A stretch of DNA of 64,000 bases from positions 115,547-179,546 of IMG/VR virus record IMGVR_UViG_3300028591_000001; one strand, given 5' to 3'. Source of the DNA: a virus (taxonomy: Duplodnaviria; Heunggongvirae; Uroviricota; Caudoviricetes). Shown here in pieces: positions 8,898-57,746 of this stretch (its first letter is position 1; every line of letters begins with the position of its first letter). The position numbers and the translations under genes were made by a program. The notes below the pieces were generated by a model that was not told the origin of the DNA, searched no databases, and worked only from the letters and a program-made list of their open reading frames with translations.

Positions 8898-9809
8898 TCA
8901 ATATTCTATTCGTGCATATTTAGCTTTTTGTTTTTCTAATTTGTTTTGTTTAGCATAATGTTTTAACATCTTTTCTACATCCTCTTTTAAATAAGAACAA
9001 TGATATAAAGTATTTTTTCCAGAATGATCATAATGATTTAAAATTAAATCTTTTATAATGAAATCAGAATTTAATTTTTGAAGCATCCACGCATAAGTTG
9101 ATAATTGTAATTGATAGTGATTAAAATTACATTCATCTAAATGTCCTAAAGGATATTTCATTTTATCGGTACAACGATTTGCATTATTGTAAAATCCTTT
9201 TAAATCTATTTTAGCATTAGTTTTATGGTCTATGATATAAATATCATTTCCATTTTTTACTATAAGGTCTATTTGTCCTGCCAAGTGTAAATCAATTTTA
9301 GGATTATCATAATATATAAGGTACTCAGGATATATTCCATAGTCTAAGTTAAGATCAGTATAATCTTTTTTACATTCAAATTTTCCTCCAATACCAAACT
9401 TCTTTAAAGTAATATTAGAACCAGCATTATAAAAAGAATTTTCTAACTGTGCATGAATTTTAGTTCCTCTTTCACAAGCAATTCTATTTGTTTCTGCCCA
9501 TTCATCAAGAATATCTTGTTGAACTTTATTTAGATTTTCTTGAGATATATTATATACCTCTAAAAAATCTTTTGGTATTTTATGGTTTTTCCAAATACCT
9601 CCTTTTTCTTTTTTCCAGTCTTCTGGAGACATTATTCTTTCTAAAGCTTTATAAGCACTTACAAATTCCTTATCAAATTCTTTTCCATACCTTTCTATTA
9701 AAGTAGTTACAGAGATATATTTGATAGTAGGATCATTTAAATTTCCGTAGTAATGGTCAGCTTCTCTAAATCCTACTGAACCATTAATTTTATCATATCC
9801 CATTTTCAT
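8898..9809 (-). CDS. PD-(D/E)XK family nuclease (RecB or Cas4-like fold)
   Basis: 303-aa ORF with GQIDLIV...IYIIDHKT (D...D-x-K) and several Cys residues. No TAG. Confidence 0.55.
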   Translation of the reverse strand: MKMGYDKINGSVGFREADHYYGNLNDPTIKYISVTTLIERYGKEFDKEFVSAYKALERIMSPEDWKKEKGGIWKNHKIPKDFLEVYNISQENLNKVQQDILDEWAETNRIACERGTKIHAQLENSFYNAGSNITLKKFGIGGKFECKKDYTDLNLDYGIYPEYLIYYDNPKIDLHLAGQIDLIVKNGNDIYIIDHKTNAKIDLKGFYNNANRCTDKMKYPLGHLDECNFNHYQLQLSTYAWMLQKLNSDFIIKDLILNHYDHSGKNTLYHCSYLKEDVEKMLKHYAKQNKLEKQKAKYARIEY

Positions 9810-12261: not shown

Positions 12262-13010
12262 TGGAAGAAAAATTAACAAAGGAAGAGTTACAAGAATTAG
12301 GAAGTTCTTTTAATTCAAAATTAGGAATGGATATGTTTAAGAAAATAGATGGAGTTGTTTATAAATTATGTACTAAATGTCTTAAATATAAACCAATGAA
12401 TGAAGAATATTTTCCACATAGAAGTAATGTAAAATGTGGATTTGATTCTAGATGTAAGGAATGTTATAAAGAAAAAGAAAAAACTAGAGTTAGAGTCAAA
12501 CCATTTAACGAAGAAGGAGAATTATATTGTTTAAAATGTAAGTAGTATAAACCTTTATCTGAATTTTATCCAAATTCTAGTAATACTAAAAATAGAAATT
12601 ATTATTCTAATTATTGTAAATCTTGTGAATCTGAAAGAAGTAAAATAAAAAGAGAAAATTACCATTCTGATGATCCTATTTTATTTTTTAGAGATTTAGC
12701 AACTGCTTGTAGAGGTAGGGCTTATCGTAGTAATAAATTTAAATGTACAATTACTAAAGAAGATTTGTTAGATTTATATGAAAAACAAAATCATAAATGT
12801 GCATTATCTGGAATTGAAATGACTACAATAAAAGAAAAAGGAAGATTACCAAATAATGCTTCTGTTGATAGAATAAATCCTGGAAAAGATTATTCTATTG
12901 ATAATATAAGATTAGTATGCAATCATATAAATATGATGCGATCAGATTTATCAGATGAAGAACTTTTAAAATATTGTAAAGCTATTGTAGATTATGTTAA
13001 TAGAATTTAA
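12258..13010 (+). CDS. HNH homing endonuclease with one recoded TAG
   Basis: ORFs 12258-12545 and 12765-13010 are in one frame joined by TAG at 12544. Motif ASVDRINPGKDYSIDNIRLVCNHINMM (HNH_3-like) plus Cys-rich zinc fingers. Confidence 0.7.
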
Positions 13011-13011
13011 A

Positions 13012-13845
13012 AAAGGAAATAAAATATATATTAAACCTAAAAATCGCGGCAAATTTACAAAATACTGCCACGGTAAAGTAACAGATGAATGTATATAGAA
13101 AGGAAAAAATAGTTCTAATCCTGCTATTAGAAAGAGGGCTACGTTTGCAGCTAATGCTAGAAAGTGGAAACATGAATCAGGAGGATTATTAAAGTTTGAA
13201 GAAGGAGGTAAAAATGGAGCTCCTTCTACTAAGTTTTTATCTAAATAGTGGTTTAAAAAAGCTGGAAATACTATAAACAATATTGGAAATAATATAGGAG
13301 ATTTCCTAAAAACAGATACGGGAAAAGGTATAATGGATATTGGATAGAATATTCTTAGTGGATACACTAATTATAAAAAAGCTTCTAATTTATTAGATTC
13401 TCAAGTAGAACAAAGTAAAGCTTCCTTAGAATAGGCCTATTAGGATACAATATAGTAGGCTATATAGAATAGGGCTATTCAACAATAGTTGGTAAAGGAA
13501 TAGTGGAAACAAGCTTATTAGAATGGAGAAACTTTAGATAATTATAGTGATATTGTTGCTCAACATATAGGATGGAATTAGTATAGTTCCGCTTTATAGA
13601 ATGCCGAACAATAGAAAAGACAGCAAGAAGCATTAATGGATTAGCAAGCTAAATAGGCTAAAAGTAATGCTCTAGGAAATTTATTTGGAAGTGTTGTATA
13701 GTCAGGACTTGGAGTTTTAGGTAATGTATTAGGAAAAGGGGGAATATCAAGTACTCCTACTACAAGTACCTCTACTACTGCAACGAATAATACTTAGTTC
13801 AGTTCTCCTTTAAATGATTCAACAAAATTTTGGAGTATAAAATAA
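13012..13845 (+). CDS. TAG-rich reading frame (more than 15 TAG) with no in-frame ATG. Its N-terminus (KIYIKPKNRGKFTKY) duplicates the C-terminus of 11287-12261, so it may be the downstream half of a gene split by the HNH insertion.
   Basis: Frame 1 is open from 13012 to TAA at 13843-13845. Similarity IHIKEKNKGKYFKSI vs IYIKPKNRGKFTKYC. Confidence 0.35.
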
Positions 13846-14389: not shown

Positions 14390-14391
14390 AG

Positions 14392-14463
14392 TTGTCCCAC
14401 TAGGATTCGAACCCAGGCTAAAGGATTTAGAGTCCCCTGTACTGACCGTTATACTATAGGACA
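14392..14463 (-). tRNA. Suppressor tRNA with anticodon CUA (reads UAG), probably Gln-derived
   Basis: Cloverleaf: acceptor UGUCCUA/UGGGACA (U1-A72), D GUAU-AACGGUCA-GUAC, anticodon stem GGGGA/UCCUU, loop CUCUAAA (U33, C34-U35-A36, A37), T-arm CUGGG-UUCGAAU-CCUAG, discriminator A. Resembles the phage tRNA-Gln(UUG) at 34623. Confidence 0.8.
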
Positions 14464-22556: not shown

Positions 22557-22649
22557 AGCAGGTTGGTGTAATGGTCAACGTTAGTTGGTAGCTACTAATA
22601 CAACATATTCCTAAAAGGAATGATAAAGGTTCGAATCCTTTGCCTGCTG
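22557..22649 (+). tRNA. tRNA-like (93 nt) with good acceptor and T-arm, an extra ~20 nt, and no identifiable anticodon
   Basis: Acceptor AGCAGGT/GCCTGCT, T AAAGG-TTCGAAT-CCTTT. Interior carries TGGTAGCTACT. Confidence 0.35.
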
Positions 22650-22713
22650 CAAATTTAATTTTGATTTTTCATAAATTAAAATAAATTAAAAAATAAAAAT
22701 AATTTTTAATGTT

Positions 22714-29625: not shown

Positions 29626-29764
29626 GGGGAACTTGAGTAATGGTAAGCTCAAATTATATACGGGTAACCTAGGACAATCTTTTGATTTAGGGTTACCTAC
29701 AATATCATCATCTATAATTTTTCTAGGATTTCTAGAGATGTAAGTTCAAATCTTACGTTCCCCG
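29626..29764 (+). ncRNA. tRNA-like RNA (139 nt) with acceptor, D-arm, class-II variable hairpin and T-arm, but no anticodon loop. The anticodon region is replaced by the hairpin GGGTAACC...GGGTTACC-TACAAT.
   Basis: Acceptor GGGGAAC/GTTCCCC perfect with discriminator G. D GAGT-AATGGTAA-GCTC. T GTAAG-TTCAAAT-CTTAC. 8-bp helix AAATTATA/TATAATTT encloses the module hairpin. Confidence 0.5.
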
Positions 29765-29995
29765 CTAATCCAAACTATAACAATATTATTGACGTTCTTG
29801 ACATATGAATTGAAAGCAAACGTAGGTGCTTTAATTGCATTGGTAAACGTTAGGATAAATCAAGACCTAATACTAAGGAAGAAATTGTTATTTCTGTACA
29901 GAGTTTGGATTAAATTGCCAGGGTAACTCAATAAATTGATTTTAGTAATTTTATTAGTTACTTACAATACTATAGTTTTCAAAAAGGTTAGAGTA

Positions 29996-31016: not shown

Positions 31017-32996
31017 ATGACATTAACAACATTAATTATTGTAGGAGTAATTGTCCTCCTAGTAATTTTGACAATTATTGGACTCTTGTCACGTTATCGT
31101 AAATGTCCAAGTGACCAACTTTTGGTAGTTTATGGTAAAGTTAGTGGTAAATCAGCTGCTAAAATTTATCCTGGTGGTGGTGTGTTTGTATGGCCCGTTA
31201 TTCAGGATTATAAGGTAATGTCTTTAAGACCTTTCCAAATTAACTCAGAAGTTGTAGGTCCAGACAGTGGTATGATCAGAACTCATGTTACTGTAGCTTT
31301 AACTACTGCTATTTCTCAAGATCCGACAATTCAGCAGAATGCTGCAGCTCGTTTCTTAAGTGCTAATTCTAATGAGATTGTTTCTCAGATTAAGACCATT
31401 CTTGAGGGTGAAGTAAGATTGATTATTGCTTCAATGTCAATTGAAGAAATTAATTCTGACCGAGATGCTTTCAAGACTAAGGTTAAGGATAGTTTAGGTA
31501 ATGAGTTAAACAAGGTTGGTTATGATATAACTAACATTAACATTCAAGAAATTACTGATGAAGCAGATTATATTAAGAATCTTGGAAAGAAGAAGGAAAC
31601 AGAGGCTAGAGCAAATGCAGAGGCTGATATTGCTGACAAGGAGAAAGACGGAGCAATTAGAAAGGCCAACATCAAGAAGGAACAAGAAATCCAAGTAGCA
31701 ACTGCTGATAAGGAAAGAGAAACTACTGTTTCTCAGACCAAACAGGAGCAGGCTGTTAAAGTAGCAGAGATTGAGAAGGAACAGGAGACTCAGATTGCTG
31801 AAACTCAGAAAGCTAAAGAGGTTCAACTGTCTGAAATTGAGAAAGACAAGCAAACCGGTATTGCTAATCAGAAAGCTCTCCAAGTAGCTGCTGTAGCAAG
31901 TGCTGATGCAGATGCAGAATCAAAGAAGGCAGAAGCAGAAGCAAGAAAGGTAGCAGCTGTAGCAGCTCAAAAAGCAAAAGCTGAATCAGAGAAAGCTAAG
32001 TCTGAATCAGAACAGAGAAAGGCCGTAGCAACTGCTGAAGCTGATGCTGAAGCTACTGAGAATGAGAAAGAAGCATTGATGCAAACTCGTATTGCTGAAG
32101 CTAATCAGAAGAAAGAAGCTGATATTGCTAAGGCAACTCAGGAGAAGGAAGCTAAGAAGGCAGAGTATGAGTCTGCTAAACAGATTCGCAAAGCTAAGGC
32201 TGATCAGGATGCAGGTGTAGCAGAACAGAATGCAAAGATTCTTGTAGCTCAAGCACGTGCAAAAGCAGGTCAAGCAGAAGCTGATGCTGATAAAACTGTA
32301 CAGGTTGCTAAGATTGAAGCAGATATGAAGGCTGCTAAGACTAAACAAGAACGTCAGTTGGAGGTTAACGAAGCTGAAGCTAAGGCAGTTGAAGCTAAGT
32401 TAAATGCTGAGCAGGTTGTTCCTGCAGAGCAGGCTAAGAAGAAGACCATTATCGAAGCAGAAGCTATTAAGGAACAAGCTGTCCTTGAAGCAGAAGCCGA
32501 GAAGCAACGTATTCTTAAAAAGGCTGAAGCAGACGCAGAGAAAGTTCGTTTGAACATGAATGCTGAAGCTGAAGGTATTAAGAATAAGAAACTTGCTGAA
32601 GCAGAGGGTCAGAAGGCTCTCTTGTTTGCAGAAGCAGAAGCTCTCCAGAAGAGAGAAATGGCTCCAGCACTTGCTCTACAGAAGATGGTTGAATCATTCG
32701 GTGGTAATCCAGATCTTCTTGTTCAGTACAAAATGGTTGACCAGTATAAGTCAATCGCTGAGGCTCAAGAGAAGATGCTCGAGCATATTCAGCTTGGTAA
32801 TGTCACTATTTATGGTGATAAGAACACTGGTGCTGACTTCGCTAAGAGCTTTATCAAGAACTTTACTCCTGCCCTTGACATTGTTAATGACGGATTCAAG
32901 GATAAGTTTAAAGAAGTATTTGGTCTAAAGAAGGCTGAGGAACTTCCTGATAATTCTGAGACTCCAGAGAATAAGGAATTTGATGAAGTGAAATAA
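31017..32996 (+). CDS. Flotillin or band-7 (SPFH) family protein (YqiK/FloT-like), 659 aa
   Basis: N-terminal TM, PSDQLLVVYGKVSG...GGVFVWPVIQDYKVMSLRPFQI SPFH core, long EA-rich coiled coil, C-terminal domain. Confidence 0.75.
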   Translation: MTLTTLIIVGVIVLLVILTIIGLLSRYRKCPSDQLLVVYGKVSGKSAAKIYPGGGVFVWPVIQDYKVMSLRPFQINSEVVGPDSGMIRTHVTVALTTAISQDPTIQQNAAARFLSANSNEIVSQIKTILEGEVRLIIASMSIEEINSDRDAFKTKVKDSLGNELNKVGYDITNINIQEITDEADYIKNLGKKKETEARANAEADIADKEKDGAIRKANIKKEQEIQVATADKERETTVSQTKQEQAVKVAEIEKEQETQIAETQKAKEVQLSEIEKDKQTGIANQKALQVAAVASADADAESKKAEAEARKVAAVAAQKAKAESEKAKSESEQRKAVATAEADAEATENEKEALMQTRIAEANQKKEADIAKATQEKEAKKAEYESAKQIRKAKADQDAGVAEQNAKILVAQARAKAGQAEADADKTVQVAKIEADMKAAKTKQERQLEVNEAEAKAVEAKLNAEQVVPAEQAKKKTIIEAEAIKEQAVLEAEAEKQRILKKAEADAEKVRLNMNAEAEGIKNKKLAEAEGQKALLFAEAEALQKREMAPALALQKMVESFGGNPDLLVQYKMVDQYKSIAEAQEKMLEHIQLGNVTIYGDKNTGADFAKSFIKNFTPALDIVNDGFKDKFKEVFGLKKAEELPDNSETPENKEFDEVK

Positions 32997-33341: not shown

Positions 33342-33457
33342 GAGGGAATTGGTGTAATGGTAACACACGTAGCTTTTGTATCTTTTGATACATACAATAT
33401 CATTATGCGATGAATTGTGGTTTTCCGTGTTCTAGGTTCGAGTCCTAGGTTCCCTCC
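33342..33457 (+). ncRNA. tRNA-like RNA (116 nt) with acceptor, D-arm and T-arm, and the module hairpin TGTATC-TTTT-GATACA-TACAAT in place of the anticodon arm
   Basis: Acceptor GAGGGAA/TTCCCTC, D GGTG-TAATGGTAA-CACA, T CTAGG-TTCGAGT-CCTAG. Confidence 0.45.
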
Positions 33458-33820: not shown

Positions 33821-33952
33821 CATCTTTTAACTATAACATCTAAAAAATAAAAAATAAGTTTAAAGTCTAAGATACTTACAATTTTTATTTGAATTTTGCC
33901 ATAAATTAAGAACAACATGATAAAAAAAATAAAATTTAAGTATCTTTTTAAT

Positions 33953-34548
33953 GGCTCCATGTCGGAATTGGTATACGAGTCAGACTGGACTAAAGACTAT
34001 AATTTGGTCTTAAATATAGGTTGCTATGGCGAGAAATCCCATAGTAGAATCTCCCTAAAACGGTGGAAGTCCTCAGAAGTGGGAGTAAGTTGTGTGAGAT
34101 ATATACATTCACACCACCTAAACAATAATGGTGGAGGATAATACCGTGCTAAATTGAGATAAGGATGAAGAAGTCCTCCAAATAGCCAAAGTTGGATATG
34201 ATTCTACATTGACCGAATCAATCTCATAAATGTGTAGAGAGTATATAGGAGATACCTAAGTTGAAATTATACCTCATATACGTGTCCATAAGATTGTAAA
34301 AACAGTAAATGGGCAGCCATTTAATCGGAATGAGACTTGCAAGAATTTCAATATTGGTAAAGATGTATTCCAGACCACAACAAACAAAAACTTGCATTAA
34401 CATCTTTGAAGGGTGAAATCAGATAGAAGTTAAAAACTTGCTCAGTTTTAAACGACAAAATGTGTTTGTTTGGCTATGGCAACATAGAGTGGTAAGTAAA
34501 ATCTGATGGGCTGAATAGCCTGTGAGGGTTCAAGTCCCTCTGGAGCTA
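33953..34548 (+). tRNA. tRNA-Leu(UAA), class II, interrupted in the anticodon loop after U33 by a ~510-nt insertion (33987-34496) that is a candidate group I intron
   Basis: Exons: GGCTCCA TG TCG-GAATTGGTATA-CGA G TCAGA CU | UAAAA UCUGA, variable hairpin GGCT-GAAT-AGCC, T GAGGG-TTCAAGT-CCCTC, TGGAGCT, discriminator A. The insertion follows a U and ends in G. Confidence 0.55.
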
Positions 34549-34622
34549 CAATGTCGTGATGACATCATAGTATAAATTTTTGTACACGTTAGTTACTCAC
34601 GTGGGGAAAAGTAGTAGCAAAT

Positions 34623-34833: not shown

Positions 34834-34922
34834 GGGATCATAGTATATCGGTCAGTACTAGAAATAGGCGATTACCTCTGACTTTTAATCAGATAAGCTG
34901 GGTTCGACTCCCAGTGGTCCCA
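34834..34922 (+). tRNA. tRNA-Lys(UUU)-like, 89 nt, with a 17-nt insertion between the D-arm and the anticodon stem
   Basis: Acceptor GGGATCA/TGGTCCC, D GTAT-ATCGGTCA-GTAC, insert AGAAATAGGCGATTACC, anticodon stem TCTGA/TCAGA with loop CTTTTAA, T CTGGG-TTCGACT-CCCAG. Confidence 0.45.
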
Positions 34923-35219
34923 CAAATAAACCTAACACCGAGAGCAACGATCCTTATATTAAATATCCGGATGAAAACTAGTTGATATATGTGAGTCGGG
35001 TCGGTTAGTTTAGCATAAGTCGAAAGTTTATGTGAAGAGTTTAGGTTTATTTAATATCGCAGTGAGAATTGGTATTCAAGAGGGTCTCATAAGCCTTCCT
35101 CCGAGGATTCGATTTCCTCCGCTGCAAGGACACATAATCAAAACCTCCACGTGGTGTGTCTGGGTAATGCTAATTTGATTAGATAATTTATTTAATTTAA
35201 TTTATTTAGAATTGAATTA

Positions 35220-35870
35220 TGGCTTATATTTATTGTATTACAAATTTAATTAATGGAAAATAGTATGTAGGTAAAACTACATGTTCTATTACAAAAAGAT
35301 TTAAAGAACATTGTAAAGATTGTAAAAAAGAAGAAGAAAAAAGACGTCCTCTTTATAATGCCATGAATAAATATGGCATAGAAAATTTTGTTGTAAAAGA
35401 ACTTATAGAATGTGAAATAGATGAACTTAGTTCTTATGAAATTATATTTATAGAGAAACTTCAAACATATGGAAAAAAAGGATATAATGCAACAAAAGGA
35501 GGTGATGGTTCTATATTATTTGATTATAATGAAATAGTTAATTTATATAAACAAGGAAAATCTATGATAGAAGTAGCTAGTATAACACATTGTTGTACTA
35601 AAACTGTTTCTAAAGTAATTCATTTATATAATTTGCCTATAAATAAAATTATATCAGGTAGTTGTTAGCAACCAAAAATTGTAATACAACTAAATAAAGA
35701 AACAGAAGAAGAATTACAAACTTTTGATTCAGTTGCAGACGCTTCTCATTGGTTAGTTGATAACGGATATGCTAAAACATATAATGGAGGAGTTAGACAA
35801 AAGATTTGTAATTGTTGTAATGGAAAACTAAAATCAGCTTATAAGTTTAAATGGAAATATAAAGAGTAAT
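35220..35870 (+). CDS. GIY-YIG homing endonuclease with 2 recoded TAG codons
   Basis: MAYIYCITNLINGK[TAG]YVGKTT...KEHC...ENFVVKEL. Reads through TAG at 35262 and 35664 to TAA. ORF 35363-35668 is an internal fragment. Confidence 0.65.
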
Positions 35871-36096: not shown

Positions 36097-36183
36097 TATC
36101 CAATATGGCGCGTTCGACTAGTGGCTTAGGTCACAAGACTTTCAATCTTGTAGGAAGGTTGCTTCCTCAGGGGTTCGAATCCC
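36097..36183 (+). tRNA. Class-II-shaped tRNA-like (87 nt) with anticodon UUC and an 18-nt variable hairpin. Atypical.
   Basis: Acceptor GGCGCGT/ACGCGTT (two G-U), D GACT-AGTGGCTTA-GGTC, 6-bp anticodon stem ACAAGA/TCTTGT with loop CTTTCAA, variable GGAAG-GTTG-CTTCC, T AGGGG-TTCGAAT-CCCCT. Confidence 0.45.
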
Positions 36184-36380
36184 CTACGCGTTACTGGTCC
36201 AACCTAGAGCGACACGGTTGTAAAAGAATTGTCAAGCAGCTTTGGTATTTAAGCATTAAATACCTCCCAGAAGAACAAACACGCTTTGACGGGAGATGAT
36301 CTAAACGTGTTCCAATAGTATTACTATTGTAGAATCCAGAGATAATGTATTATGACCATATAAAATACATTGAGGAATCT

Positions 36381-37178: not shown

Positions 37179-37205
37179 ACCCTATGTACAAAAATAATAA
37201 ATAAA

Positions 37206-37853
37206 AATGTATTTATGAGTTATATTTATTGTATTACAAATTTAATTAATAGTAAAAAGTATGTCGGAAAAACTACAACTACTATAGATGAAAGATGGTA
37301 GGAACATTGTAGAGATAGTAAAAGAGAAAGATGTAGCAAAAGACCTTTATATGATGCTTTTAATAAGTATGGTATAGAAAATTTTAAAATAGAAGAACTT
37401 GAATATGTTGAAGATGATTCCAAACTTTCTGAAAGAGAAATATATTGGATAAGAGAACTCCAAACTTATGGTCAAAATGGATATAATGCTACTAAAGGAG
37501 GAGATGGAACAATATTATATGATCATAATGAAATATTAGAATTATATAAATTAGGATATTCTGTTATACAAATTTCAGAAAAAATACAATGTGAACGTAG
37601 TACTATTTCCAAAGTTTTAAAAGTTCATGGAGTCAAATCTAGAGGAAATTCTGATATGATAGATTAGTTTGATTTAGCTGGAAATTACATACAAACTTTT
37701 GATTCTTCTGTAGAAGCAGCACAATGGATTATAAATAATAATCTTACAACTACTAATAAAATAAAAACTATTAGAGGAGCAATTAGATTGTGTTGTCAAA
37801 GAAAAAGAAACTCTGCATATGGTTATAAATGGATTTTAAAAATTATTCCATAA
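37206..37853 (+). CDS. GIY-YIG homing endonuclease, a paralog of 35220-35870, with 2 recoded TAG codons
   Basis: MSYIYCITNLINSKKYVGKTT...RW[TAG]EHCRDSK...YGIENFKIEEL. The first ~30 nt are near-identical to the 35220 copy. Confidence 0.65.
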
Positions 37854-50851: not shown

Positions 50852-50936
50852 CACCAGTTGGTCGAGTGCTCGATGGCAGGGGACTGCAAATCCTCTAGGA
50901 GAAATCCTCACGTTGGTTGGAATCCAACACTGGTGT
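50852..50936 (+). tRNA. tRNA-Cys(GCA)-like with a long variable hairpin and a 6-bp anticodon stem (allo or Sec-like shape)
   Basis: Acceptor CACCAGT/ACTGGTG, D GTCG-AGTGCT-CGAT, anticodon stem AGGGGA/TCCTCT with loop CTGCAAA, T GTTGG-TTGGAAT-CCAAC (G56 with C19). Confidence 0.45.
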
Positions 50937-51056
50937 CTACAATAATCCTAAACACTTAGCAATTGTGTAGAGAATACACTAAAAAGAGTGCTCAACTATG
51001 GCATCTATAGACCATCAAATTGCTCGTGGGATACGTTGAGAGGATTATTAAAATAA

Positions 51057-51181: not shown

Positions 51182-51270
51182 AGGGGAGTAACCGGTAATG
51201 GGTTTCCGACCAGATTTGGGATCTGGAAACGTGATGAGCGTGTATGCGAGTTCGAGTCTCGTTTCCCCTA
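51182..51270 (+). tRNA. tRNA-Pro(UGG)-like with a long variable hairpin, 89 nt
   Basis: Acceptor AGGGGAG/TTCCCCT, anticodon stem CCAGA/TCTGG with loop TTTGGGA, variable ACGTG-ATGAG-CGTGT, T GCGAG-TTCGAGT-CTCGT. Confidence 0.45.
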
Positions 51271-51309
51271 CTATTTAGTAGATAGTTCTTTTAACTTAAT
51301 TAATGTAAA

Positions 51310-52682: not shown

Positions 52683-53345
52683 TTGTTCTATTATTCGTCT
52701 TTAGGATGGAATGTTTCAAATCCTATTACTGATTGTACTGATTATGATTTTTTAGCGGAAGATAATGGAAAAATATATAAGATACAAGTTAAAACTACTA
52801 AATTTTTAACAGATTCTGGAAATTATCAAGTTCATTTAACAACTAATGGAGGAAATCAAAAAGAATATTGGAGAAAAGAATTAAATAAAGAAGAATTAGA
52901 TTATTTATTTATACTAACAGAACAAGGTATTTGTTACTCTATTCCAATAAATGAAGTAGAAACATCTAATACAATTACATTATATGATAAGTATGATAAA
53001 TATAAAGTTTTCATTTTGTCTCCAATAACAGAAGAAAATATTCATTGTAATCATAAAGAAATTCCTCTTCCAAATAGAAGTACTAAAGAACATCAATACT
53101 TTTGTGAATGTGGAAACCCTGTTTCTAGAAAAGGAGGTCTTTGTAGAAGTTGTTCTCAAAAAAGAAGAAACAATAGAAAAGTAGAACGTCCCTCTAAAGA
53201 AGAATTACTTCAATTGGTTAAAGAAAATGGAATGACTAAAACCGGAAAAATGTTTGAAGTATCTGATAAATCTATTAGTAAATGGTTAATTGATTATGGA
53301 TTACCAGGAACTATAGGAGGATTAAAAGAACAAAATTTAATATAA
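52683..53345 (+). CDS. Putative PD-(D/E)XK-like nuclease with a C-terminal zinc ribbon and HTH. Possible homing endonuclease.
   Basis: DYDFLAEDNGKIYKIQVKT, CECGNPVSRKGGLCRSC, C-terminal HTH-like LVKENGMTKTGKMFEVSDKSISKWL. Confidence 0.4.
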   Translation: MFYYSSLGWNVSNPITDCTDYDFLAEDNGKIYKIQVKTTKFLTDSGNYQVHLTTNGGNQKEYWRKELNKEELDYLFILTEQGICYSIPINEVETSNTITLYDKYDKYKVFILSPITEENIHCNHKEIPLPNRSTKEHQYFCECGNPVSRKGGLCRSCSQKRRNNRKVERPSKEELLQLVKENGMTKTGKMFEVSDKSISKWLIDYGLPGTIGGLKEQNLI

Positions 53346-57173: not shown

Positions 57174-57746
57174 ATGTCAAAATGGGAATCTGAAAAAGAA
57201 GAACTTGAAAGACTTATAAATATAGAAAAAGTCAGTTATGAAGAAATAGGTAGAAGATATGGTTGTTCTGGGAGTAATATTAAGAAAGTTGCTAGACAAT
57301 TAGGAATAGAACTCCCTCAACGTAGAAAGATAAATCCATCTGAACATTTTAACAAACAACAACATTATTGTTTAAATTGTGGAAAAGAAATTAAAACTGG
57401 TAATAAATTTTGTAATGTAAGTTGTCAATGGGAGTTTAAATATAAACACTTTATACAAAAGTGGTTAAATGGAGAAGAATCTGGAATTGTTGGGAAAGAT
57501 GATATATCAGATTATATAAGAAAATATTTATTTGAAATTCATAATAATTCTTGTGAAAAATGTGGATGGAATGAAGTAAATAAATTTACTGGAAAAGTTC
57601 CATTACAAATTCATCATATAGACGGAGATTGTACGAATAATAACATAAAAAATCTTCAATTATTATGTCCAAATTGCCATTCATTAACTGAAAATTTTGG
57701 TGCAAGAAATAAAAATTGTACAAGAATAGATAAAAGAGTAAGATAA
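57174..57746 (+). CDS. HNH homing endonuclease with an N-terminal HTH
   Basis: LQIHHIDGDCTNNNIKNLQLLCPNCH, plus SYEEIGRRYGCSGSNIKKVARQLGI. Confidence 0.75.
   Translation: MSKWESEKEELERLINIEKVSYEEIGRRYGCSGSNIKKVARQLGIELPQRRKINPSEHFNKQQHYCLNCGKEIKTGNKFCNVSCQWEFKYKHFIQKWLNGEESGIVGKDDISDYIRKYLFEIHNNSCEKCGWNEVNKFTGKVPLQIHHIDGDCTNNNIKNLQLLCPNCHSLTENFGARNKNCTRIDKRVR

Follow-up and report, generated by a model that had tools for sequence, protein, structure and literature searches.

An enlarged IC3-like group I intron in the tRNA-Leu(UAA) gene of a phage tRNA array

The interrupted tRNA-Leu(UAA) gene

Positions 115,547 to 179,546 of the viral record IMGVR_UViG_3300028591_000001 (Caudoviricetes, IMG/VR) form a stretch of 64,000 nucleotides (nt), here called the window, that has a guanine plus cytosine (GC) content of 30.7% and holds ~30 transfer RNA (tRNA) genes as counted by ARAGORN. 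Our subject is a tRNA-Leu(UAA) gene in this array and the insert that divides it, which we identify as a group I intron, an element that is classic in the tRNA genes of bacteria and chloroplasts. When joined, the two halves of the gene read as a normal class II tRNA. The 5' exon, GGCTCCA TG TCGG-AATTGGTAT-ACGA G TCAGA CT, supplies the acceptor strand GGCTCCA, U8 and G9, a D arm (TCGG/ACGA) with the G13.A22 mismatch that is typical for tRNA-Leu, the anticodon-stem strand TCAGA and then C32 and U33. The 3' exon continues with TAAAA TCTGA, a variable hairpin (GGCT-GAAT-AGCC), a T arm (GAGGG-TTCAAGT-CCCTC), TGGAGCT and the discriminator A.

The gene with its insert is overlooked by ARAGORN at default settings and by the Rfam tRNA model; with its intron option ARAGORN reports tRNA-Leu [33953,34549] (taa) i(35,510). 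This agrees with an earlier note on this DNA, made from the letters alone, which had proposed a tRNA-Leu(UAA) split by a ~510-nt insertion in the anticodon loop and had rebuilt from the exons a class II tRNA with the loop CU|UAAAA, a variable hairpin, a T arm and discriminator A, all of which we also read in the sequence. When all 5' cuts were scanned with the 3' end fixed, the cut after 33986 was the sole one yielding Leu(taa) with a 7-nt loop, CUUAAAA, and a restored 7-nt anticodon loop is also what is seen in IC3-type tRNA introns of the Azoarcus / Anabaena type. The insert begins with GGACU and ends with GGUAAG, and the note was right that a U precedes it (U33986) and a G terminates it (G34496). 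Its placing of the insert at the classic tRNA-Leu(UAA) locus was off by one base: the insertion point is U33|U34 (CU/UAAAA, site 33/34), one base 5' of the classic U34|A35 (site 34/35), which is written CUU/...g/AAAA (Williams 2020, bioRxiv 10.1101/2020.01.27.920355).

The insert has 36% GC and contains no open reading frame (ORF) of more than 64 codons in the standard code, and its longest ORFs fall on the antisense strand under each genetic code tried. At 510 nt it lies outside the compact 180-270 nt typical of IC3-type tRNA introns; it is about twice the usual size yet lacks an ORF because its P5, P6, P8 and P9 helices bear RNA extensions. A 2026 survey gives bacterial tRNA introns a range of 184-894 nt with a mean of 257, and all 12 of those longer than 500 nt had endonuclease genes, among them the HNH genes found in Bacteroidota tRNA-Leu(UAA) (PMC13011429), whereas the 510 nt in the window are RNA with no coding sequence. 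A chance origin of the split-tRNA arrangement is excluded, since the arrangement recurs with a homologous insert in many independent phage contigs.

Core helices, covariation and homologous introns

A blastn search against GenBank phages matched only a 45-nt stretch of the insert (window 34221-34268), which is 90-96% identical in two crAss-like phages. In the IMG/VR set searched, exact strings taken from the exon, the L1/P2 region and the P9 extension had no match, and tblastn with a neighboring 611-aa protein gave no hit among GenBank phages. Scanning IMG/VR with the motif GTAGAGANTATANAGGAGATACCTAAG returned 43 loci, 14 of which carry the 3' end of the window insert (...GGCTATGGYAACATAGnGTrGnAnG), each directly followed by a tRNA 3' half. 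Host tRNA and site were assigned by joining the exons and then running ARAGORN, and the introns were found in Leu(UAA) at 33/34 (window, L023) and at 34/35 (L009, L043, L039), in Arg(UCU) at 34/35 (L018, L030) and at 36/37 (L006, L021), in Met/Ile(CAU) at 36/37 (L005, L045) and in Ser(UGA) at 34/35 (L007). A metagenome scan added six further Leu(UAA) 33/34 copies with three different anticodon stems. Across the family the 5' exon always ends in U and the intron in G; this terminal G (omega-G) is present in all 15 tRNA-borne members located by their 3' anchor.

To examine the structure we used an alignment (A2) of the cores and exon ends of 11 phage family members from Leu, Arg, Met/Ile and Ser tRNAs, with the variable loops cut out. 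Among its 867 pair cells 95.3% are paired, compared with 37.8-45.0% when the 3' partners are slid by 1-3 columns. Changes on both sides are seen at 26 pairs, against a shuffle mean of 12.5 (0 of 500 shuffles reach 26), and the covariation score is 0.233 versus 0.086 in shuffles. The splice-site pair is U.G in all 11 introns. Next to it, P1 covaries with the guide at position -2 (CG7 AU2 UA2) and at position -3 (UA6 CG4 AU1), while the first P10 pair tracks the first 3' exon base of each host tRNA (UA6 AU2 GC2 CG1). Compensatory change is present in 6 of the 9 pairs of P2, P9.0 appears as UA5 CG4 UG2, and P5/P5b, P6 and P9 covary as well; in P5b it is the stem that covaries, with a conserved loop, UAAACAAUAAU.

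RNAalifold, which was blind to the drawn structure, recovers P1, P2, P4, P5, P5b, P6, P7, P8, P9 and P9a from the alignment. P3 is absent from its drawing because P3 forms a pseudoknot with P7, and we retained P9.0 because the alternative partner that RNAalifold proposes for the strand before omega-G never covaries. The minimum free energy of the whole 596-nt pre-tRNA has a z-score of -4.06, and the corresponding fold contains the L1 hairpin, P2, P4, P5, P5b and the tRNA acceptor stem and T arm.

In the window copy itself the core helices are all intact and the core is ~90% identical to that of relatives in other tRNAs (Table 1). The earlier note had allowed that a P3-P7 core might prove undetectable; we find P3, P4, P5, P6, P7 and P8 together with P1, P10, P9.0 and the terminal G. 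The three details that it singled out for inspection are likewise in place: P1 pairs as GACU/GGUU with the wobble U33986.G34019 at the splice site and neighboring pairs that covary with the host exon, P10 comprises 2 bp of which the first covaries across hosts, and a putative guanosine-binding pair, G34239-C34370, stands in P7 beside a bulged A34238. A first candidate for the guide sequence, GGUCU at 34006-10, was dropped, as the guide always abuts P2 and GGUCU is half of the L1 hairpin, which differs among family members and duplicates the exon sequence AGACU.

Table 1. Exons and structural elements of the interrupted tRNA-Leu(UAA) gene (window positions)
Feature	Position	Strand	Description
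5' exon	33953..33986	+	acceptor 5' strand, D arm, anticodon-stem 5' strand, C32, U33
P1 exon strand GACU	33983-33986	+	final four bases of 5' exon
Group I intron	33987..34496	+	510 nt, no ORF, IC3-like core, enlarged peripheral domains
Hairpin within P1 loop (L1)	33993..34011	+	AAGACU 33993-98 / GGUCUU 34006-11
P10 strand UA	34017..34018	+	pairs with first two 3' exon bases (A34018-U34497, U34017-A34498)
Internal guide sequence GGUU (P1 3' strand)	34019..34022	+	directly before P2
P2 hairpin	34023..34045	+	GAAA tetraloop cap at 34033-34036, closing pairs covary
P3 5' strand AUCUCC	34049..34054	+	pairs with GGAGAU
J3/4 CUAAA	34055-34059	+	A-rich, precedes P4
P4 5' strand ACGGU	34060..34064	+	
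P5 5' strand GUCCUC	34069..34074	+	pairs with GAGGAU
Variable P5 extension	34075..34114	+	includes hairpin GUGUGA 34092-97 / UCACAC 34109-14
P5b hairpin CACC/GGUG	34115..34133	+	11-nt loop
P5 3' strand, J5/4, P4 3' strand	34134..34147	+	P5 3' strand 34134-39; P4 3' strand ACCGU 34143-47
P6	34155..34226	+	UGAGAU 34155-60 / AUCUCA 34221-26, encloses variable 60-nt extension
P7 5' strand	34237..34242	+	G-A(bulge)-GAGU
P3 3' strand GGAGAU	34248..34253	+	pseudoknot with P7
P8	34254..34358	+	outer stem ACC/GGU
P8 11-nt GAAA-receptor motif	CCUAAG 34255-60 ... UAU(U)GG 34352-57	+	
P8 inner helix	34260-68 / 34344-52	+	plus variable extension
Conserved P8 element	34336-43	+	CUUGCAAG
J8/7 and P7 3' strand	34359..34371	+	J8/7 AAAGAUGU; P7 3' strand AUUCC 34367-71
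P9.0 5' strand CCAC	34375..34378	+	
P9	34381..34472	+	CAAACAAA 34381-88 / UUUGUUUG 34465-72, encloses variable 76-nt extension
P9a hairpin	34474..34487	+	CUAUG-GCAA-CAUAG, GNRA tetraloop 34479-82
P9.0 3' strand and intron end	34489..34496	+	GUGG 34489-92, then UAA and omega-G at 34496
3' exon	34497..34548	+	anticodon UAA, A37, A38, anticodon-stem 3' strand, long variable arm, T arm, acceptor 3' strand, discriminator A

Since P3, P4, P7 and P8 are invariant within the phage set, an outside comparison was needed. We scanned bacteria, one genome per species, with the pattern GTAGAGASTANANNGNNNNNACCTAAG and found the P7-P3'-P8 motif GUAGAGAsUA...ACCUAAG in at least 120 loci, which among the matches listed are mostly from Proteobacteria and Acidobacteria. 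The gathering score of the Rfam group I intron model, RF00028, is passed by 7 of the 16 bacterial loci tested (52-64.5 bits), and each of the seven interrupts a tRNA anticodon loop, that of Leu(UAA) at 34/35 in Rhizobium (L087), Azospirillum (L059) and Chelatococcus (L108), that of a CAU tRNA in three cases and that of Arg(UCU) in one. The L087 intron ends on the same plan as the window copy (...UAGUCCAGACCACAAAC-hairpin-GNRA hairpin-AGCGGUAAG|AAAAUCC). R1, a 145-position covariance model that we built from phage cores alone, aligns full-length to 75 of 80 bacterial loci at E<=0.01, and its hits fall within all seven RF00028 hits. Its best match (60.2 bits, E 6.5e-10) is L093, a compact tRNA-Leu(UAA) intron at site 34/35, although R1 E-values are inflated, since the pattern used to select the loci has 18 fixed bases that also occur in the model. 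Within the 64-kb window R1 finds no second intron copy.

Because of this preselection, pairs beyond the motif and pairs spanning it were also counted, in a block alignment without gaps that has 59 distinct rows, 11 from phages and 48 from bacteria. Here 95% of pairs are formed, as opposed to 21-47% when slid, and P3, P4 and P7 keep their pairing via compensatory changes between phage and bacterial introns. Three P3 pairs vary (UA/CG/GC; CG/UA/AU/GC; UA/GC/CG), the end pairs of P4 change between AU and UA and between UA and GC, and the third P7 pair, which is C-G in bacteria, appears in phages as G.U, G-C or A-U. The P7 G-C pair beside the bulged A is kept in 58 of the 59 rows. In the window it corresponds to G34239-C34370, which adjoins A34238 at the place of the guanosine-binding pair in homologous bacterial introns, and by this homology it would be the guanosine-binding site. 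Phage and bacterial hits aligned together by cmsearch (A5) were unreliable for copies with long insertions, and the block alignment was used instead.

Taken together, the full helix set with covariation and the homology to bacterial introns that pass RF00028 bear out the group I intron that the earlier note had offered as a candidate. The four classical bacterial tRNA intron types are all marked IC3 in the group I intron database cited by Williams 2020 (bioRxiv 10.1101/2020.01.27.920355), and as the nearest certified relatives of the window intron are of these types, we call it IC3-like. It adds a new, phage-borne member to the IC3-type lineage of tRNA introns, and presumably one that splices.

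The bacterial tRNA-Leu(UAA) introns (the classic cyanobacterial/plastid 'Leu.3Ug' type and the proteobacterial relatives L087, L059, L108 and L093) occupy the same host gene and the same loop as the window intron. They share its core (P3-P8 order, P7 strand GUAGAGAsUA, P8 ACCUAAG...UAUGG and a J8/7 of AAG-AU type), its 3' end (CCAGACCAC-P9-GNRA hairpin-GUGGUAAG), the U.G at the 5' splice site and the terminal G. In contrast to these chromosomal introns of ~190-270 nt, the window intron lies in a phage tRNA array and one base more 5', with the guide GGUU and A as its P10 base, and its 510 ORF-less nucleotides include added AT-rich domains in P5, P6, P8 and P9 and are RF00028-negative.

The Azoarcus intron has a very short P1 (CAU/GUG), a GAAA loop in L2 with a receptor in P8, and a GNRA loop in L9. 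Its P1 is the same as in family members L005 and L045, and its L2 tetraloop, 11-nt P8 receptor, L9 loop and P7 strand GUGUAGAGACUA are those of the window intron, in which GAAA lies at 34033-36, the receptor reads CCUAAG/UAUGG (UAUUGG in the window copy) and L9 is GCAA at 34479-82; docking of these elements is predicted. Unlike the window intron, that of Azoarcus is found in another tRNA and at another site (36/37), and is compact (~205 nt), GC-rich and devoid of the P5b hairpin and of the P6/P8/P9 extensions.

Two groups of phage introns were also compared. The T4 td intron (IA2), also a group I intron of a phage, has the P4'/P6 sequence CCGUGCUAAAUUG...CAUAAAUG in common with the window; td carries I-TevI, sits in a protein gene and has P7.1/P7.2 between P7 and P3', whereas the window intron has none. 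An IA2-like reading, suggested by the shared sequence, was rejected because P3' comes straight after P7 with no P7.1/P7.2 between them and because R1 scores td at 27 bits (RF00028, 40 bits). In crAss-like phages of the Delta and Zeta groups, group I introns in protein-coding genes have been recognized via their endonuclease domains (Yutin et al. 2021, PMC7886860). The 45-nt core stretch of the window is matched by elements in two of these phages, IAS virus and cr116_1, and in the latter the element occupies a ~590-nt gap between two primase coding-sequence fragments. In environment and probable host phylum these elements agree with the window; L095 and L111 are contigs of Bacteroidales and Prevotellaceae metagenome-assembled genomes. 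The window intron differs in being located in a tRNA and in having no ORF. Copies of the crAss type (L001, L002, L004 and others) were left out of the counts, their P2-P6 half being too diverged for anchors and hand pairing ambiguous. In cr116_1 (L002, 1342-1934), GenBank lists 'DNA primase' and 'DNA primase/helicase' as separate coding sequences, and the gap between them is an unannotated intron of the window's family.

The closest relative of the window copy, L183, has the same flanks, L1 hairpin and exon design, with peripheral modules that are all different. Conversely, near-identical peripheral modules are common to introns in different tRNAs and different contigs, as seen with a P5 extension in L023/L030, another in L006/L012, and P6 extensions common to L023/L041 and to L030/L045. 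This sharing, and the module differences between close relatives, point to recombination between intron copies. L039 and L043 share the flanking sequence of the window (they are syntenic), yet their intron lies one base 3', at the classic site; together with L009, also syntenic, they use the 34/35 site and the guide sequence GAGU. A one-base shift of the splice site among syntenic relatives, with matching changes in guide and P10, constitutes a natural experiment on intron retargeting.

Several further loci of the scan have features of their own. One 129-kb contig, IMGVR_UViG_3300021399_003927, contains at least three intron copies (L031, L041, L045), which lie in three different tRNA genes. 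In L041, which lies in a Trp-like tRNA (~2250-2310, reverse-strand coordinates), a 7-nt loop with U at -1 is not obtained with any cut, and the intron start, AAGGACUG, resembles the 3' strand of an anticodon stem. A subfamily made up of L010 (~12592-13080), L012, L032 and L038 has the same P2-P8 core and a P7 3' strand ACUCU, and is located after a conserved protein-coding-like sequence (…GQWWRTD…). Directly 3' of these copies comes a tRNA-shaped element that ARAGORN does not call as a tRNA; its acceptor, D and T arms covary, and its 'anticodon' loop has 9-11 nt. L180 has, within a phage tRNA array, a sub-threshold match to YrlA (RF02553) at 8958-9078 (-), with 38.9 bits against a gathering score of 69.

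Predicted splicing and competing explanations

The following steps are drawn from established group I intron chemistry. In the folded pre-tRNA, exon bases GACU (33983-86) would pair with GGUU (34019-22) of the guide, which would put the wobble U33986.G34019 at the 5' splice site. Exogenous guanosine would bind P7 at G34239-C34370, beside bulged A34238, and attack the bond after U33. The terminal G34496 would then take the same P7 site, positioned by P9.0 (34375-78 / 34489-92) and by the short P10 (34017-18 with 34497-98), and the free 3'-OH of U33 would attack after G34496, joining the exons into an 86-nt tRNA-Leu with the loop CUUAAAA. The expected junction is GAGTCAGACT|TAAAATCTGA; the spliced sequence would read GAGTCAGACTTAAAATCTGATGGGC and the unspliced form GTCAGACTGGACTAAAG. 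Docking of the L2 GAAA loop with the receptor in P8 probably braces the fold, as does the L9 GNRA loop, by analogy with Azoarcus-type introns. We consider it very probable that the insert is a functional self-splicing group I intron.

Several observations weigh against this conclusion. RF00028 gives no match on 33900-34600 even at E<=10 with relaxed filters, so that the search proposed in the earlier note came out negative on the window, though it did detect the T4 td control and compact relatives from bacteria. The same model misses five further expanded members (L183, L178, L182, L030, L180) at E<=0.1. The comparison loci, bacterial and viral, were selected by motif, and part of the R1 score arises by construction. 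The receptor strand in P8 contains an extra U in the window copy only (UAUUGG vs UAUGG), which could weaken the L2-P8 docking, and P7 has a G.U pair where bacterial relatives have C-G. P1 consists of 4 pairs, two of them wobbles, and P10 of 2 pairs, and the L1 hairpin, by repeating exon AGACU, could compete with P1. Splicing itself is something that we infer from the sequence.

Regarding the database result, the window intron does not reach the RF00028 gathering threshold of 50 bits, and the remaining Rfam families give no intron match on the window, either at their gathering threshold or at E<=10. The crAss-like loci L001 and L002 also have no Rfam intron match, and RF00028 misses both Bacteroidales copies (L111, L095). 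The model does find the T4 td intron (40.3 bits, E 1.6e-8), and a typical phage intron would therefore have been seen by it. R1, when aligned to the window, must skip 58, 58 and 72 nt inside P5, P6 and P8, with another 76 nt held in P9, and the RF00028 failure accompanies the insertions within P5, P6 and P8. As RF00028 misses the expanded members and finds compact L093 (55.3 bits), the family is invisible to the standard tool.

The size of the intron raises the question of whether it can fold by itself. A group I-derived intron dependent on a protein of phage or host origin (for instance a maturase or RNA chaperone), with AT-rich P5, P6, P8 and P9 extensions hindering its folding, would fit a length of 510 nt at 36% GC with four large peripheral insertions, compared with the bacterial average of 257 nt (PMC13011429), and would also fit the conserved extra elements that have no assigned partner, namely the 11-nt P5b loop and CUUGCAAG in P8. 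However, the L2-P8 tetraloop/receptor and L9 GNRA of the self-splicing Azoarcus type are retained, no maturase-like ORF is present in or beside the intron, and the peripheral modules vary freely among close relatives, contrary to what a specific protein-binding platform would require. We regard protein dependence as unlikely.

Most of the doubt that we retain about a functional, self-splicing intron is assigned to a recently disabled copy. A decaying group I intron that has lost splicing, which would make the locus a tRNA-Leu(UAA) pseudogene that persists only because the host tRNA is available to the phage, could account for the unique extra U in the P8 receptor strand, the lack of an endonuclease ORF, the weak P1 and P10 and the negative RF00028 result. 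Against this stand the intact core helices and the ~90% core identity to relatives in other tRNAs, as well as exons that form an undamaged canonical tRNA-Leu. In addition, the guide and P10 exactly fit the exon context, one-base shift included, and the six other 33/34 Leu introns keep the same design. Loss of splicing is thus improbable. That the insert is no intron at all, and that a miniature mobile element or phage 'module' destroyed the gene by landing in its anticodon loop, may be dismissed: other tRNA genes in the window do have short unexplained inserts in the anticodon-loop region and RF00028 is negative, but the idea is already contradicted by the complete group I helix set with its covariation, the U at -1 and omega-G in all relatives, the guide sequence that tracks the host exon, the model-level homology to bacterial introns passing RF00028 and, on reading the sequence, the absence of terminal repeats and of a target duplication at the insert.

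Mobility, wider significance and neighboring features

As the earlier note had remarked, the window intron has no homing endonuclease gene, there being no such ORF within its 510 nt, although the homologous intron of syntenic L039 does carry one. The L039 intron is 1109 nt long and has an I-HmuI-like ORF with NUMOD4-HNH_3-NUMOD1 domains; this HNH cassette (L039 4225-4880) is inserted in the P7 3' strand, between AUU and CC, and not in a peripheral loop. In L111 and L095 the stretch 5' of the core includes HNH-like coding sequence. Some phage tRNA-Leu(UAA) genes have the identical anticodon arm but no intron, and the best of these agrees with the spliced window tRNA at 71 of 86 positions. The window copy may be immobile, or it may be mobilized in trans or by recombination with related copies.

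Free-standing endonuclease genes are found among the tRNA genes of the window. Two are GIY-YIG (Seg-like) genes at ~35222-35869 and ~37197-37853, in line with the nearby GIY-YIG genes of the earlier note, and one PD-(D/E)XK_5 gene and one HNH gene are located at 52683-53345 and 57174-57746, respectively. These free-standing endonucleases are candidate trans-acting mobilizers of DNA in the tRNA region.

According to a 2014 review, phages have many tRNA genes, yet all the phage introns known by then interrupted protein-coding genes (PMC3984707). The later surveys of tRNA introns consulted here covered bacterial, or bacterial and archaeal, genome assemblies only (Williams 2020, bioRxiv 10.1101/2020.01.27.920355; PMC13011429). 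A literature search of incomplete coverage turned up no group I intron reported from a phage tRNA gene, which is absence of evidence only. The window locus and its relatives show that phage tRNA genes too have been invaded by group I introns. Because the family is missed by RF00028 and by default tRNA finders, phage tRNA repertoires, and the inferences on codon usage and recoding drawn from them, are under-counted; here the missed gene is the reader of UUA/UUG in a 31% GC genome. The horizontal movement of the 'ancient' tRNA-Leu intron has long been debated; phage tRNA-Leu(UAA) introns, some of them with HNH homing endonucleases, provide a concrete vector for it.

A broader reading of these observations is speculative, and we hold it to be unlikely. 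Tentatively, tRNA arrays of gut- or rumen-type phages may hold a phage-adapted, enlarged IC3 clade that retargets anticodon loops (Leu 33/34 and 34/35, Arg 34/35 and 36/37, Met/Ile 36/37, Ser 34/35) via a reprogrammed 3-4 nt guide and P10, that swaps peripheral modules, and that is kept partly for the benefit of the phage and not merely as a selfish passenger. If this were true, interruption of the anticodon loop could shield pre-tRNAs from host anticodon nucleases or time the supply of tRNA, and phages could ferry tRNA introns between bacterial lineages.

Other tRNA genes of the window are also unusual. The ARAGORN intron option reports a tRNA-Arg(ACG) at 29626-29765 with a 49-nt insert after position 38 and a tRNA-Lys(UUU) at 33343-33457 with a 23-nt insert after position 37. 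These two inserts share ATCTTTTGAT...ACAATATCA (2 matches, 0 expected by chance) and are far too short for a group I intron. Five tRNAs of 86-94 nt (36107-36194, 51182-51271, 50852-50937, 22557-22650 and 34834-34923) have long extra arms or small inserts, and comprise Glu-UUC, Pro-UGG and Cys-GCA (normally class I), one unassigned tRNA and one Ala/Gln call, which is unusual for bacterial-type tRNAs.

A suppressor tRNA with the anticodon CUA is present at 14391-14463 (-). When TAG is read as sense, the total in ORFs of at least 150 amino acids (aa) rises from 6266 to 11768 aa, and both GIY-YIG genes depend on read-through of TAG. TAG is probably reassigned in this phage, apparently a large AT-rich one. 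Immediately upstream of the tRNA cluster, positions 31017-32996 encode a 659-aa SPFH/Band 7 (flotillin-like) protein with a long repetitive C-terminal region rich in Ala/Glu/Lys.

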